From an uncultured Mesonia sp. (GTDB lineage: Bacteria; Bacteroidota; Bacteroidia; Flavobacteriales; Flavobacteriaceae), in NCBI GenBank assembly GCA_947494545.1, contig CANLVH010000004.1, positions 181,281 to 245,280 on the forward strand: a stretch of 64,000 nt of DNA, written 5' to 3'. A model generated the notes under the pieces. The model searched no databases. It saw only the letters and a program-made list of their open reading frames with translations, and had not been told where the DNA came from. The position numbers were made by a program, and so were the translations under genes. Position 1 is the stretch's first letter. Every line of letters begins with the position of its first letter. Below, piece by piece: positions 15,988-59,267 of the stretch.

Positions 15988-16302
15988 TTGGATAATTGGT
16001 ACATTTATATAATGAGAAATAAGCCGAACGGCCTAATTTATATCGGAGTTACTGATAATTTACAAGAACGAGTAAAAGAGCATAAATTTAAAATGTATCC
16101 AAACTCATTTACTGCAAAGTATAATTGTGACAAATTGGTTTATTTTGAAAAACTTGATAACGGTGCTAAAGCCTCAAGACGTGAGAAACAATTCAAAAAA
16201 TGGAAGAGAGCTTGGAAAATTTCTTTAATTGAAGAGATGAATCCTAATTGGATGGATATTAGCATGAATTGGAAATTTGATTTGAATAAATTTAGAAATT
16301 AG
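15988..16302 (+). CDS. Small GIY-YIG nuclease (YhbQ/UPF0213-like)
   Basis: WYIYIM...LIYIGVTDNLQERVKEH...FTAKYNCDKLVYFE...REKQFKKWKRAWKI.LIEEMNPNW.D. Confidence 0.9.
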   Translation: MDNWYIYIMRNKPNGLIYIGVTDNLQERVKEHKFKMYPNSFTAKYNCDKLVYFEKLDNGAKASRREKQFKKWKRAWKISLIEEMNPNWMDISMNWKFDLNKFRN

Positions 16303-55404: not shown

Positions 55405-55477
55405 GCGAAAATAGCTCAGCTGGTAGAGCGCCACCTTGCCAAGGTGGAGGTCGCGGGTTCGAATCCCGTTTTTCGCT
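55405..55477 (+). tRNA. tRNA-Gly (GCC)
   Basis: Cloverleaf: GCGAAAA/TTTTCGC acceptor, CCACC-TT-GCC-AA-GGTGG anticodon arm, GGTTCGAATCC T-arm. Confidence 0.97.
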
Positions 55478-55547
55478 CTGAAATGTAAAACTTTTAAACT
55501 TTTATTTTTGTGAAAAACAGTAAAGGTTTTATGTTATAAATGCTCAG

Positions 55548-55635
55548 GCTCGGGTGGTGGAATTGGTAGACACGTTGGACTTAAAATCCAATGGCCATTA
55601 TGGCCGTACGGGTTCAAGTCCCGTCCCGAGTACCA
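55548..55635 (+). tRNA. tRNA-Leu (TAA)
   Basis: GCTCGGG/CCCGAGT acceptor, TTGGA-CT-TAA-AA-TCCAA anticodon arm, long variable arm, encoded CCA. Confidence 0.97.
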
Positions 55636-55637
55636 AA

Positions 55638-55672
55638 GACCCTCTTAATCTTTTGATTTTGAGGGTTTTTTT
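55638..55672 (+). terminator. tRNA terminator hairpin, repeated in each cassette (also near 56035 and 56431)
   Basis: ACCCTC...GAGGGTTTTTTT. Confidence 0.75.
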
Positions 55673-55707
55673 GTTTTTATGTATTTTGTTTTAATCAATT
55701 AGCAATT

Positions 55708-56007
55708 ATGGCTGCGGTTTATATTCTTTATTCTGCTTCTATTGACTCTTTTTATGTTGGGAGTTGCGAAGATTTTGATAGTCGTTTATCGCAACATTTA
55801 AATGGTGATTTCAAAAAGGCATTTACTAAAAGAGCGAAAGATTGGCAGAAATTTCTTCTTCTTGAAAATCTAGAATATGCCCAGTCACGACAAATTGAGG
55901 CGCACATTAAGAAAATGAAATCGACTAAATATATTGCCAATCTCAAAATGTATGAAGAAATGATACAGAAATTAATAGAGAGATTCAAAACGGGTTCATC
56001 CCGATAG
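55708..56007 (+). CDS. Small GIY-YIG nuclease, copy 1
   Basis: VYILYS...FYVGSCEDFDSRLSQH...FTKRAKDW...IEAHIKKMKS. Confidence 0.9.
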   Translation: MAAVYILYSASIDSFYVGSCEDFDSRLSQHLNGDFKKAFTKRAKDWQKFLLLENLEYAQSRQIEAHIKKMKSTKYIANLKMYEEMIQKLIERFKTGSSR

Positions 56008-56016
56008 CTATCGGGA
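55999..56016. repeat. Perfect 18-bp palindrome TCCCGATAGCTATCGGGA inserted in the tRNA-derived T-arm (second copy 56395-56412)
   Basis: Replaces AGT of ACGGGTTCA-AGT-CCCG; contains the nuclease stop codon TAG. Confidence 0.95.
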
Positions 56017-56103
56017 CCCGTCCCGAGTACCAAAGATCCTCTTAATCTTTTGATTTTGAGGGTTTTTTGTTTTTATGTATTTTGTTTTAATCAATTAGCA
56101 AGT

Positions 56104-56403
56104 ATGGCTGTGGTTTATATTCTTTATTCTGCTTCTATTAACTCCTTTTATGTTGGAAGTTGCGAAGATTTTGATAGTCGTTTATCGCAACATTTAAATG
56201 GTGATTTCAAAAAGGCATTTACTAAAAGAGCGAAAGATTGGCAGAAATTTCTTCTTCTTGAAAATCTAGAATATGCCCAGTCACGACAAATTGAGGCGCA
56301 CATTAAGAAAATGAAATCGACTAAATATATTGCCAATCTCAAAATGTATGAAGAAATGAGACAGAAATTAATAGAGAGATTCAAAACGGGTTCATCCCGA
56401 TAG
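56104..56403 (+). CDS. Small GIY-YIG nuclease, copy 2
   Basis: 99 aa, differs from copy 1 at 3 residues (A3V, D13N, I86R); ATG at 56104. Confidence 0.9.
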   Translation: MAVVYILYSASINSFYVGSCEDFDSRLSQHLNGDFKKAFTKRAKDWQKFLLLENLEYAQSRQIEAHIKKMKSTKYIANLKMYEEMRQKLIERFKTGSSR

Positions 56404-56592
56404 CTATCGGGACCCGTCCCGAGTACCAAAACCCTCTTAATCTTTGATTTTGAGGGTTTTTTGTTTGTAAAATGATTTTGTTTTACTGAAATCATCTAAA
56501 ATTCCTCCCTACTTCCTACAGAAAAAATCAACAACGTCATCTTTTGGCGCTGTCGCTTTTTAGTTTTGTTTTCTAACCAAAAAACTAAAGAG

Positions 56593-57684
56593 ATGAACGA
56601 TACTACATTAGCAAAGCACAGTTTAAAAGATAAATTTACACAACAACTAGACAGCAGTTTATTTGGCTCTTATCCTGTTATGAATTTGTACAGAACCAGA
56701 AGACTTTTTGTGCTTAAATTTAATTATCTCCCTAATCTAATTGTAGAGAATCAAATAAACGCATCTAACTTTTACGCGGCTTTCCGTAAAGAATATAAAA
56801 ACTGTATTTATGAAGATTATTATGGAAAAAGAGGTTCTAAAAATCATTCCATAAAAATGGTAGATTATTATTGCTTTTTGAAAGAAGATATATTGGTTCA
56901 TATAGATTTTAACGAAGATGAGATAAGCTTACTTTTTAATAAAACAAATGAAGAAGCGGTAAATGAGATTCAGCAGCTAGTAGTAAAACACCGGCAGAAA
57001 ATAAAAAAAGAACCTAAAATAAATGTAGTGGTTTCTTCGCAGCACGGTCTTTCGCTGCATTTAATGGATTTGAATACTACAGAACTTGATATAGAAGCAA
57101 ATTATAACGATGATTTTCTAGCTGTGCACCAAACTATTTTGGCGCGTATTAAAAAGAAAAAGGACAAAGGTTTAGTATTACTTCACGGCAAACCCGGCAC
57201 CGGTAAAACTACTTATATAAAACACCTTATTTCTCAAGTAGAAAAAGAAGTTGTTTTTATGCCACCCAATTTGGCCAATCAAATTACCAATCCGGGACTT
57301 TTAGAGTTACTAATAGAAAATCCCAATTCTATTTTGGTAATAGAAGATGCAGAAGACATAATTCTTGAGCGAAATCAAAAAAGCAACTCGGCTGTTTCTG
57401 CTTTACTGAATTTATCTGACGGGATTTTAGCAGAGTGTTTAAACATTCAAATTATTTGTTCTTTTAATACCCAACTTTCTAAAATAGATTCTGCTTTATT
57501 GCGAAAAGGAAGACTAATTGCCAGGTATGAATTTGAAGAATTAGCACTTGATAAGGTAAATAACTTGTGCCGAAATTTAGGATTAACACAAGAGTATTTT
57601 GAGCCACAAGTCTTAGCGGAAATCTTTAATCAACACGAAAAAGCCAGTCAGCAGAAGCAAAAAAAGATTGGTTTTTTTGCTTAG
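56593..57684 (+). CDS. AAA+ ATPase with uncharacterised N-terminal domain
   Basis: LLHGKPGTGKT Walker A, ILVIEDAE Walker B, LLNLSDG, DSALLRKGRL Arg finger. Confidence 0.88.
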   Translation: MNDTTLAKHSLKDKFTQQLDSSLFGSYPVMNLYRTRRLFVLKFNYLPNLIVENQINASNFYAAFRKEYKNCIYEDYYGKRGSKNHSIKMVDYYCFLKEDILVHIDFNEDEISLLFNKTNEEAVNEIQQLVVKHRQKIKKEPKINVVVSSQHGLSLHLMDLNTTELDIEANYNDDFLAVHQTILARIKKKKDKGLVLLHGKPGTGKTTYIKHLISQVEKEVVFMPPNLANQITNPGLLELLIENPNSILVIEDAEDIILERNQKSNSAVSALLNLSDGILAECLNIQIICSFNTQLSKIDSALLRKGRLIARYEFEELALDKVNNLCRNLGLTQEYFEPQVLAEIFNQHEKASQQKQKKIGFFA

Positions 57685-57762
57685 TAATAAGGAAATCAAT
57701 TTCCAAAAAAAGCTTCGAAACAGAGAAACTAAAGATTTTTTATAAACTAAACTATATATCAA

Positions 57763-58008
57763 ATGACTAAGAAAAAATTCCAAACTCATTTTCCAAAAAG
57801 AGATCGCTTTTTAGAGAAATCCACCAAAGCGCTAGAAACATTTGAAAAATTAGAAATGCAGGTGGAGGAAATCAAAACAGAATTATTAGATTTTTTATTG
57901 TATAGTCAGGCCATAAAATTAAAAGCGATGCAAAGTGAATTAAAAACTCTAAAAACAAAATATAAAGAGATAGACGAAAACTTCTTTAAACCGCCTAACC
58001 ACAAATAA
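57763..58008 (+). CDS. Small hypothetical coiled-coil protein
   Basis: 81-aa ORF with ATG start in an otherwise empty spacer; no recognised motif. Confidence 0.45.
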   Translation: MTKKKFQTHFPKRDRFLEKSTKALETFEKLEMQVEEIKTELLDFLLYSQAIKLKAMQSELKTLKTKYKEIDENFFKPPNHK

Positions 58009-58205: not shown

Positions 58206-59267
58206 ATGCGAAATTATTTACTCGGAATTTTCTGTTTGTTTTATTTTTTAAGCTTTGGTCAAGATACTACTGCAAACAAAGATTTTTCATCTAAAGAGTT
58301 TACCATCGGTGTTTTTGAAACGCCTCCGTTTGTCACTAAAACACCAAATGATTATGGCGGGATGAGCGTTAAATCTTGGAAAATGGTAAACGAAAAATTG
58401 CAATGGGATTATAATTTTAAAGAATACGAATCGCTTGGAGCCTTAATAAAAGGAGTAGAAGCGGGAGAAGTAGATTTTAGTATAAACCCAATTACCGTTA
58501 CCGATAAACGGATGGAGCGTCTAGATTTTTCGCAACCTTATTTTATATCTAATACCGGCATTGCAAAGAAAAGTGAATCTGCCGTATGGAAAATAATCAC
58601 TAATTTATGGAGCTGGAAATTCTTATCGGCTATCTTAATTTTGCTTTTAATCTTGCTTATTTTCGGTACTTTAGTGTGGTTTTTTGAACGGAAGAAAAAC
58701 GAAGAATTTGGCGGAAAAGGTGCCAAAGGAATTTACGAAGGTTTATGGTGGAGCGCCGTAACTATGACAACTGTAGGTTACGGAGACAAATCTCCCAGAA
58801 CTACCGGAGGCCGCGTTGTTGGACTTATCTGGATGTTTATGGCCGTGATTATTCTCTCTAGTTTAACAGCAGGAATTGCTTCGGCTTTGACCGTGCAATC
58901 TATTAGCGATGAGATAGCTTCTATAGACGATTTAGGCCGATTTAAAGTTGCAACGGTAGAAAACTCTAGCTCACAAGAACTTTTAGATTTGTACCAAATA
59001 GATTATATAACAGTAGCCAATGGCGAAGAAGGTATAGAGAAACTGTTAGACCAAGAATACCTTTTTGTATATGATTTGCCCATTTTGCAATACGAAGTTA
59101 AAGAGCAAGATTTAGAAAAAGATATCGAGATATTGGAGCGTTCTTTAAAACGAGATTATTTTAGTTACAGCTTTCCTAAAAATACTACGTTGGTAGAACC
59201 CATTAACCCCGAAATTATTGCGGTATTAAAAACAATGGAATGGAGTAAAATTACAGAAAATTATTAA
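58206..59267 (+). CDS. Ligand-gated K+ channel with split periplasmic-binding domain (GluR0-like)
   Basis: PBP S1 half (TPPF, ITVT.KR...DFSQPYF), TM1, pore WWSAVTMTTVGYGD, TM2, PBP S2 half. Confidence 0.88.
   Translation: MRNYLLGIFCLFYFLSFGQDTTANKDFSSKEFTIGVFETPPFVTKTPNDYGGMSVKSWKMVNEKLQWDYNFKEYESLGALIKGVEAGEVDFSINPITVTDKRMERLDFSQPYFISNTGIAKKSESAVWKIITNLWSWKFLSAILILLLILLIFGTLVWFFERKKNEEFGGKGAKGIYEGLWWSAVTMTTVGYGDKSPRTTGGRVVGLIWMFMAVIILSSLTAGIASALTVQSISDEIASIDDLGRFKVATVENSSSQELLDLYQIDYITVANGEEGIEKLLDQEYLFVYDLPILQYEVKEQDLEKDIEILERSLKRDYFSYSFPKNTTLVEPINPEIIAVLKTMEWSKITENY

Follow-up and report, generated by a model that had tools for sequence, protein, structure and literature searches.

Tandem GIY-YIG gene cassettes within a tRNA-Leu(UAA) gene of an uncultured Mesonia sp.: a candidate integrase-less selfish element

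Introduction

The closest described counterparts of the element considered here are free-standing homing endonuclease genes and the integrative elements that insert at tRNA genes. The element lies within the 3′ part of the gene for tRNA-Leu(UAA) in an uncultured Mesonia sp. (Flavobacteriaceae), at positions 55636-56485 of a 64,000-nt stretch of DNA (GenBank assembly GCA_947494545.1, contig CANLVH010000004.1, forward-strand positions 181,281 to 245,280), referred to below as the window. It consists of two tandem cassettes of ~396 bp, each with one gene for a 99-aa GIY-YIG protein. With a probability of about one half, these are taken to be selfish mini-cassettes that dispense with an integrase, behave like homing endonuclease genes, rebuild the tRNA gene they occupy and multiply by unequal recombination. 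The cassettes are akin to both counterparts, but lack the DNA-binding module of the former and the integrase of the latter.

Among homing endonucleases, the nearest parallel is SegB of phage T4, a free-standing GIY-YIG enzyme of the T4 tRNA cluster. In both cases, the nuclease gene is not intron-borne but lies beside or between tRNA genes, its occurrence is patchy and in keeping with selfish behavior, and spread is presumed to proceed via break repair with co-conversion of the flanks. Seg proteins are ~200-250 aa long and carry DNA-binding modules; to our knowledge, no Seg gene is accompanied by a duplicated tRNA part, a conserved hairpin or tandem arrays. In contrast, the protein described here has 99 aa and comprises the catalytic domain only, its gene is combined with a tRNA piece, a hairpin and array formation, and it resides in a Bacteroidota chromosome instead of a phage.

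The stand-alone Slx1-like/UPF0213 proteins likewise consist of a single minimal GIY-YIG domain of ~90-100 aa and provide the best fold matches. These proteins (YhbQ, BH0048, EF2693) are for the most part passed on vertically, with repair-like or unknown functions (Dunin-Horkawicz et al. 2006, PMC1564403). The tRNA linkage, hairpin and arrays observed here distinguish the cassettes from that stand-alone family, for which none of these features was reported (PMC1564403).

Phages, integrative and conjugative elements and genomic islands that target tRNA genes share with the cassettes the insertion within a tRNA gene, in its 3′ or its 5′ part, an end supplied by the element, a displaced end that forms a direct repeat, and tandem occupancy. 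Unlike them, the cassettes have no integrase, measure only ~0.35-0.48 kb, carry one 99-aa open reading frame (ORF) and have a direct repeat split by a hairpin. The REP/REPIN-RAYT systems (repetitive extragenic palindromes and their associated tyrosine transposases) resemble them in having a short palindrome, present in 0-50 copies per genome and statistically tied to a small nuclease-type gene, and other GIY-YIG genes of the source genome are likewise embedded in hairpin repeats. The cassettes differ in that the enzyme is GIY-YIG and not HUH/Y1, the hairpins flank it in direct orientation without inverted REPs, and hairpin-rich genomes occur without the Leu-type GIY-YIG clade. Integron cassettes also form arrays of short, possibly promoter-less units of ORF and hairpin at a fixed entry site, and circular intermediates are conceivable here as well; however, IntI is missing, every cassette holds the same nuclease gene, and the entry site is a tRNA gene.

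No description of such cassettes was found in the searchable literature, most subscription-journal papers lying outside the search. The cassette type is widespread, looks selfish and is apparently undescribed.

Materials and Methods

Genes for tRNAs were called with ARAGORN and Rfam, and repeats with Tandem Repeats Finder. The source assembly, a draft built from short reads, comprises 89 contigs and 3.28 Mb with 37 tRNAs in total; the best-matching public sequencing run had 18% of sampled words in common with the genome, all of them tRNA. Numbers preceded by L, G and C denote loci, genomes and contigs, respectively.

The family survey covered 201 Flavobacteriaceae genomes, one per genus. Within the genus, 19 genomes of 19 species were compared, including the source genome (G000), and empty sites were located via the synteny mutS-tRNAGly-tRNALeu, an order common to all 19. 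Metagenomic relatives numbered at least 487 by scan, and locus counts were taken from the best 80. The protein profile search spanned 1.84 billion cluster representatives, and residue conservation was read from an alignment of 29 sequences (the cassette protein and 28 database homologs). The hairpin was searched as an exact 18-mer in a species-level genome collection of 596 Gb.

Results

Structure of the tRNA-Leu Locus

An earlier note, made from the sequence of the window alone, had described a tRNA-Leu-anchored array of GIY-YIG cassettes, and its anatomy was reproduced. The tRNA 3′ end, CCCGTCCCGAGTACCA, was found at 55620, 56017 and 56413 with the same terminator behind each copy, and alignment of the two units so defined (55620-56016, 397 nt; 56017-56412, 396 nt) gave exactly 7 substitutions and 1 indel. 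Tandem Repeats Finder reported a period of 396, 2.1 copies and 97% matches over 55620-56466. The repeat proved longer at both ends than had been noted: similarity to the tRNA begins 9 nt further upstream, with ACGGGTTCA at 55990 and 56386, and the repeat extends ~57 nt past the tRNA end, to 56485.

Formally, a cassette begins with a replacement for the tRNA 3′ end that starts at the T-loop and includes CCA; a terminator, a leader, the 99-aa GIY-YIG gene, 9 nt of T-arm and an 18-nt hairpin follow. All features of the locus lie on the plus strand. The intact tRNA-Leu(TAA), with encoded CCA, occupies 55548-55635 and is the sole gene of that kind in the whole assembly. The ~57-nt segment behind it (55636-55693) contains the terminator hairpin CCCTC...GAGGG with a T-run (55640-55672) and a spacer leading to GTTTTA; it recurs in every unit, the hairpin is supported by a single-stranded fold of the second copy, and an orthologous terminator stands at the empty sites of the genus. 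Cassette 1 (55694-56007) comprises a 14-nt leader and the first ORF (55708-56007), whose TAG stop falls within the hairpin. It overlaps the first pseudo-tRNA end (55990-56032), made up of ACGGGTTCA (55990-55998), the 18-nt perfect palindrome TCCCGATAGCTATCGGGA (55999-56016), and the 3′ T-stem, 3′ acceptor and CCA (56017-56032). The second copy of terminator and spacer (56033-56089) leads to cassette 2 (56090-56403), which has its own leader and an ORF (56104-56403) differing from the first by 3 amino acids. The second pseudo-tRNA end (56386-56428) repeats ACGGGTTCA (56386-56394), the palindrome (56395-56412) and the tRNA 3′ end (56413-56428). In the third and, by alignment, most diverged copy of terminator and spacer (56429-56485), the repeat stops at GTTTTA|CTGAAATC.

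The palindrome stands in place of the T-loop bases AGT. The claim that the tail of the protein is encoded in the rebuilt T-arm was borne out by the codons: the last ones, ACG GGT TCA TCC CGA TAG, read T G S S R stop, with TGS derived from the 5′ half of the T-arm, ACGGGTTCA, and SR and the stop from the palindrome. As single-stranded DNA (ssDNA), the T-arm halves and the palindrome were predicted to form one composite hairpin (-11 kcal/mol, z = -3.3), while the native T-arm segment alone gave no fold. The last 16 nt of the tRNA-Leu gene (55620-55635), with the CCA, look as if they were supplied by the element.

Profile scans of the locus yielded no family match to an integrase, a transposase or a reverse transcriptase, as had been stated. 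The Rfam scan of the locus returned two tRNAs and no further family, weak matches being judged chance; the second tRNA is the upstream neighbor, tRNA-Gly(GCC), at 55405-55478.

The GIY-YIG Protein

Both ORFs are intact and match the Pfam family GIY-YIG (PF01541) with E values of 4e-9 and 1e-9; the scores, 37.2 and 38.7 bits, exceed the cut-off of 22.6. The match spans residues 2-75 of 99, the remainder forming two short helices. A point that the earlier note had not made is that the protein is the GIY-YIG catalytic domain alone, devoid of the DNA-binding domain typical of classical homing endonucleases: profile scans found no domain besides GIY-YIG, that is, no NUMOD, helix-turn-helix or zinc finger module. 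An NCBIfam model of group I intron endonucleases aligned over the first 41 positions with a score under the cut-off. The search of PHROGs gave no match for the nuclease, and PADLOC gave weak generic matches only.

Residues Y5, Y16, G18, R26, H30 and E64 were invariant in the 29 aligned sequences, and all of them except G18 are catalytic positions. The AlphaFold2 model (mean predicted local distance difference test score, pLDDT, 92.8) showed a three-stranded sheet with helices. Foldseek comparison with the PDB returned Slx1 (7cq3, 4xlg, 6sei), the UPF0213 proteins BH0048 and EF2693 (1zg2, 1ywl), I-TevI and the N-terminal domain of UvrC, with probabilities of 0.9-1.0 and E values of only ~0.02-0.2. 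A sequence search of the PDB with the protein gave no match, so these relatives surfaced by fold search alone. On the grounds of the invariant catalytic residues and of a confident model that matches the catalytic domains of Slx1, UPF0213 and I-TevI, the enzyme is judged likely to be active.

Residue N78 (E64+14) was kept in 26 of the 29 sequences. It may correspond to the C-terminal Asn that marks the UvrC/homing-endonuclease lineage and not Slx1 (PMC1564403), so the clade may belong to either the Slx1-like or the UvrC/homing-endonuclease lineage. The profile search gave 636 clusters (50% identity) for the subfamily with E <= 1e-10, a number that rose to 3647 with E <= 1e-3.

Recurrence at tRNA Genes

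The association of such genes with tRNA ends was found well beyond the source locus, together with partial copies of the same tRNA. Relatives of the Leu-type protein were present in 29 of the 201 family genomes, six of which, including a single-contig genome, held arrays of 2-6 copies. At 26 of 28 foreign loci a same-strand tRNA was located within ~100 nt, and the other two contained truncated tRNA sequence. Among the metagenome loci, 52 of 80 adjoined a tRNA, chiefly tRNA-Leu isoacceptors and tRNA-Val, and ~66 had the hairpin.

A second array was identified in the source genome by tblastn of the assembly. At C1:293594-295345, tRNA-Asp(GTC) is followed by three full cassettes and one cut after ~25 codons, with a period of ~485 nt. 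The GIY-YIG protein has 86 aa and is only ~35-40% identical to the Leu-type protein. Each Asp cassette closes with a remnant of tRNA-Asp that has hairpins in place of two stretches, TCCCCAAGTGCGCTTGGGGA and TCCCCTAGTCTACTTGGGGG; the hairpins of these remnants are TCCCCAAG-TGCG-CTTGGGGA and a weaker one, and this type was kept in four genera of the Asp clade. Relatives of the Asp-type protein occurred in 67 of the 201 genomes, many of them in arrays, and 26 of 30 loci lay near a same-strand tRNA (~100-350 nt).

In all cases, the partial tRNA copy matched the adjoining intact tRNA. Two layouts were observed, one with the order intact tRNA, ORF and 3′ piece (layout A) and the other with the order 5′ piece, ORF and intact tRNA (layout B). 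When the target tRNA was mapped on a maximum-likelihood tree of the proteins, 10 changes were counted compared to 18.0 in shuffles, none of 200 shuffles being as low. The Arg-CCT, Val-TAC and Phe-GAA groups each formed a single well-supported clade. This clustering indicates that colonization of a new tRNA is rare and that lineages then remain faithful to their own tRNA.

The proposed head-to-tail expansion also recurred elsewhere, closed genomes included. The closed genome G166 carries five near-identical copies behind tRNA-Met, and arrays of 5-6 copies were present in single-contig genomes. Near-identity of the copies argues that arrays grow locally, and it rules out their origin by independent repeated insertions.

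Form and Distribution of the Hairpin

A hairpin of the form (T/C)CCCGA...TCGGG(A/G) was found within the partial tRNA at 25 of 27 loci, locus L004 having a variant. The tops of the stems covary (AT, AA/TT, AC/GT), and the loops are 3-6 nt long and often non-palindromic. Both properties point to conservation of a folded single strand and not of a duplex site; a duplex site bound by a protein dimer is accordingly disfavored. A P-nucleotide-like footprint of flanking sequence was ruled out, as the identical sequence occurs at unrelated sites and in unrelated genera.

The position of the hairpin was constant inside each protein clade. It replaced tRNA positions 15-17 (D-loop) in the Asn-B clade, 23-26 in the Arg-CCT clade, 36-40 in the Met clade, 29-45 (the whole anticodon arm) in the Val clade, 46-50 in the Asn-A clade and 57-61 in the Phe clade, and the T-loop AGT in the Leu-TAA clade.

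The palindrome is also a phylum-wide element in its own right, which the earlier note had not recognized. The exact 18-mer was found in at least 120 stretches, compared to ~9 expected by chance in 596 Gb; the named ones are all Bacteroidota, from several orders. Among the matches listed, 85 hairpin sites were examined, of which ~6 were near a tRNA and 2-3 near a GIY-YIG gene. The hairpin lay inside the loop of another stem (>=5 bp) in 20% of cases against 5% in the control, and was flanked by direct repeats in 7-8% against ~1%. In the family genomes, CCCGAT-N4-ATCGGG occurred at 713 sites, compared to ~0 for the reversed control. The median number of hairpins per genome was 5.5 with a Leu-type GIY-YIG gene and 0 without (p = 1e-9, not corrected for phylogeny), and three hairpin-rich genomes (G040 with 47, G158 with 35 and G144 with 15) had no Leu-type GIY-YIG gene even at E <= 0.01. 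Comparison of the cassette loci with the scattered copies thus shows the tie of the gene to the hairpin to be near absolute and that of the hairpin to the gene to be loose.

In viral contigs (IMG/VR, loci L229-L274), the palindrome was found at 53 sites in 46 stretches, none near a GIY-YIG gene and one near a tRNA. Phages were considered as vectors on account of these stretches, but the absence of a nearby GIY-YIG gene at all 53 sites spoke against them.

In the source genome, the hairpin occurs ~11 times, mostly in partial tRNA copies without an ORF. Such solo pieces, tagged in the D- or T-loop, are located at C13:52740-52793, at C1:121455-121490 (minus strand), on contig C70 and at C18:49520-49694 (minus strand), 6-25 nt from tRNA-Trp, tRNA-Ala(GGC), tRNA-Ala(TGC) and tRNA-Leu(TAG). 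At tRNA-Leu(TAG), three solo copies stand in tandem, two of them with the variant TCCCGAAGTGTCGGGA. The array at locus L198 is made up of an ORF unit together with solo units, all with a common left boundary. At C7:1158, the palindrome lies in apparent coding sequence beside ggtctgggtggtacca and may be an in-frame insertion.

Gain, Loss and Imported tRNA Ends

Comparison with empty sites, as suggested earlier, was possible in 17 of the 19 genus genomes, where tRNA-Leu(TAA) lacks an encoded CCA and is followed by the orthologous terminator and then by variable DNA, with integrase-like ORFs next in two of them. Occupied sites are confined to the source genome and to G211, which is the closest relative and shows 83% identity at this locus. 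The G211 locus (L032) contains no ORF and reads tRNA, terminator, ~19 nt holding the last bases of the ORF (~12 nt of its tail), ACGGGTTCA-hairpin-TGAACCCGT, and terminator; by its sequence it is a deletion derivative. Both the ORF form (~99% identical) and the G211-like joint without an ORF were present in seawater metagenomes. Pseudogenes with stop codons were found at loci L002, L019 and L022, and the number of stand-alone GIY-YIG genes ranged from 0 to ~14 per genome among the 19 species, the source genome having the highest.

The idea of a rebuilt tRNA was strengthened by the terminators. In metagenome loci with layout A at tRNA-Leu, the terminators behind the working and the displaced end were unrelated in 11 of 19 cases, which argues that the cassette supplies the working tRNA end; in the remaining 8, the same terminator stood behind both ends, as at the source locus. 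Locus L197 carries at least 2 tandem cassettes, with a protein identity of 80%. Its internal pseudo-end shows CCA and a 'ccctcttta...agagg' terminator, and the last end has no CCA and a 'gccttgttaat...caaggc' terminator of the resident type; both types occur at empty sites of the genus. By analogy with the resident-type last copy of L197, the third terminator copy of the source locus (56429-56485) is probably the oldest or resident one. A simple long target-site duplication via staggered cuts would fit the source locus and the 8 loci with a common terminator, and was dropped as a rule because of the 11 with unrelated ones.

Within the genus, an encoded CCA was found only at inserted sites, namely in the source genome, in G211 and at islands with an integrase (L041, L046). 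The flanks of the 80 metagenome loci contained 92 long ORFs, of which 2 matched Phage_integrase and 2 a DDE transposase; the remainder were housekeeping genes such as those for MutS, HscB and RecO.

As separate observations, the genus has an integration hotspot at tRNA-Leu(TAA) (L040, L041, L046), with integrase-like N-termini encoded downstream in L041 and L046, and in L032 all 36 nt of the pseudo-T-arm, ACGGGTTCA-hairpin-TGAACCCGT, form a perfect palindrome, with the bases of the left loop mirrored on the right. The latter suggests that this pseudo-T-arm was "perfected" by some copying process.

Discussion

Proposed Mechanism

If the cassettes are selfish elements driven by their nuclease, insertion into the T-loop would leave an intact tRNA on the left, with a 3′ end supplied by the element, and would displace the original 3′ end to the right, behind the hairpin. 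On a chromosome that lacks the cassette, the nuclease would break or nick the cognate tRNA gene. The enzyme would probably recognize DNA structure instead of a long sequence, a proposal based on the missing DNA-binding domain and on nearest folds that cut branched DNA; Slx1 cleaves branched and stem-loop DNA. In the subsequent repair from a cassette-bearing copy, homology would be provided on the left by the 5′ two-thirds of the tRNA and on the right by the 16-nt T-stem/acceptor segment. The foreign terminators at L197 and at 11 of the 19 loci are consistent with the co-conversion of flanks presumed for SegB.

A Campbell-type crossover of an excised ~400-bp circle within the 16-nt segment would be a formally equivalent route. 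The hairpin would mark the displaced end, and may protect it from renewed cleavage, split the direct repeat against loss of the cassette, or serve as a handle for the nuclease. Once two copies of the ~90-bp repeats are present, unequal recombination between them could yield head-to-tail arrays; recombination initiated by the nuclease, as suggested in the earlier note, may likewise contribute.

Several observations weigh against this reading. The main weakness is that the intact tRNA gene of the host is identical to the presumed target, so a model in which the cassette-free allele is cleaved needs an additional immunity feature. On the right, no more than 16 nt are available as a homology arm. 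The hairpin is not exclusive to the cassettes, most copies being far from any tRNA or GIY-YIG gene, and the solo tagged tRNA pieces without an ORF, some of them in tandem, suit a hairpin-centered system equally well. Within each tRNA class, the proteins are ~50-60% identical across genera, and no recent transfer between genera was caught. The co-duplication of the terminator with the tRNA end at the source locus and in 8 of 19 loci would also suit a long local duplication.

Alternative Explanations

It is possible, though unlikely, that the hairpin and not the gene is the propagated unit. The 18-nt palindrome and its equivalents in other clades would then behave like REP/REPIN sequences with the GIY-YIG protein in the role of the RAYT; the tRNA cassettes would be spots of co-inheritance, and the partial tRNAs by-products of stem-loop insertion that are tolerated in a duplicated piece. 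This would account for the excess of exact hairpins across the phylum (at least 120 stretches against ~9) and in the family (713 sites against ~0), for their preference for stem-loops (20% vs. 5%) and direct-repeat flanks (7-8% vs. 1%), and for the median of 5.5 copies, against 0, in genomes with Leu-type genes. The same holds for the pieces without an ORF at tRNA-Trp, at two tRNA-Ala genes and at tRNA-Leu(TAG) of the source genome, for further GIY-YIG genes of that genome within other hairpin-rich repeats, and for the separate hairpin type that the Asp clade maintains in four genera. However, G040, G158 and G144 hold 15-47 hairpins without a Leu-type GIY-YIG gene, GIY-YIG genes adjoin only 2-3 of the 85 genomic sites among the matches listed and none of the 53 viral sites, and neither the cassette's own terminator and tRNA end nor the restriction of each protein clade to one tRNA and one position is explained. 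In a separate reading, which appears improbable, the hairpin-split pseudo-tRNA would be a targeting module: the hairpin, as ssDNA or RNA, would be the handle for the GIY-YIG protein, and the tRNA-derived arms would pair with the tRNA gene or extrude a T-, D- or anticodon-arm cruciform, so that structure or pairing, and not the protein, would place the break.

That the gene is a non-mobile one of benefit to the host is comparably improbable. A structure-specific nuclease, acting as Slx1 does at rDNA, might be kept beside tRNA genes because these are highly transcribed and stall replication forks, with arrays and partial tRNAs arising by ordinary unequal recombination and local duplication. Slx1-Slx4 and UPF0213 are indeed the top structural matches, the catalytic residues are kept, the near-identical array copies speak for local duplication, and the terminator has been copied along with the tRNA end at the source locus, as it has in 8 of 19 loci. 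Such a gene would not be expected in only 29 of 201 genera, at a site occupied in only 2 of 19 congeners, as pseudogenes and remnants without an ORF, or in 0 to ~14 stand-alone copies inside one genus; nor does it fit the 11 of 19 loci in which a foreign terminator follows the working tRNA, or a conserved hairpin that is always in the non-functional tRNA piece. Mobilization in trans by the tyrosine integrases of larger elements at the same tRNA is less probable still. The cassettes would be mini-islands flanked by attachment (att) sites, similar to cis-mobilizable elements (CIMEs), with the GIY-YIG gene as cargo, and the direct repeat of the tRNA 3′ end with a working end supplied by the element is as in islands driven by an integrase; tRNA-Leu(TAA) is an island hotspot, where integrase-like ORFs lie downstream in L041 and L046 and the tRNA ends have an encoded CCA. 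Nevertheless, of the 92 flanking ORFs only 2 matched Phage_integrase, in half of the clades it is the 5′ part of the tRNA that is duplicated, the would-be att core is interrupted by the hairpin, and the recurrence of this cargo at a dozen tRNAs, with fidelity of clade to tRNA, points to the nuclease itself. Finally, an assembly artefact, with one cassette assembled as two, is very improbable: in favor are the short-read draft of 89 contigs and the GIY-YIG sequence that makes up the 408-bp contig C69 and the end of C35, which indicates that some repeats were not separated and that some GIY-YIG arrays are probably collapsed, but the two units show eight fixed differences, 3 of them at the amino-acid level, the third terminator copy is distinct, and arrays of 5-6 copies exist in single-contig genomes.

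Significance and Further Observations

If the nuclease drives the cassette, as in the preferred reading of a selfish homing-type unit, a catalytic domain of ~95 aa and a hairpin would form one of the smallest self-propagating DNA elements of bacteria. By carrying a spare gene end, the cassette tolerates insertion in an essential single-copy gene without an integrase. The finding offers a concrete and testable function for stand-alone GIY-YIG/UPF0213-type proteins, and flags the 18-bp palindrome as a separate phylum-wide repeat. Were the pseudo-tRNA a targeting module, the cassettes would count as autonomous mobile elements of bacteria that form a class of their own, new and ~350-480 bp in size, with the solo hairpins as non-autonomous relatives, and a minimal nuclease directed by structure or pairing would be of interest as a tool.

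Many of the tRNA calls in Bacteroidota that are partial or odd are explained by the cassettes. Where the hairpin takes the place of the anticodon arm (L021, L026; also L012), ARAGORN calls tRNA-SeC(tca), tRNA-Cys(gca) or an undetermined tRNA, and hairpin-bearing pseudo-tRNAs are likely a source of spurious annotations.

In the source genome, approximately ten more stand-alone GIY-YIG genes (87-104 aa) are located away from tRNAs, one of them in the window at 16012-16302 (C4:197292-197582) and others on contigs C19, C10, C14, C35 and C69. These genes sit in or beside other hairpin-rich direct repeats.

Directly after the array, at 56566-58008, the window encodes an AAA+ ATPase (372 aa; best match phrog_14322, function unknown) and an 81-aa ORF. 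Both are missing in G211, where the gene found at position 58206 of the window adjoins the tRNA locus, and judging by this comparison they are probably separate accessory DNA at a variable hotspot.

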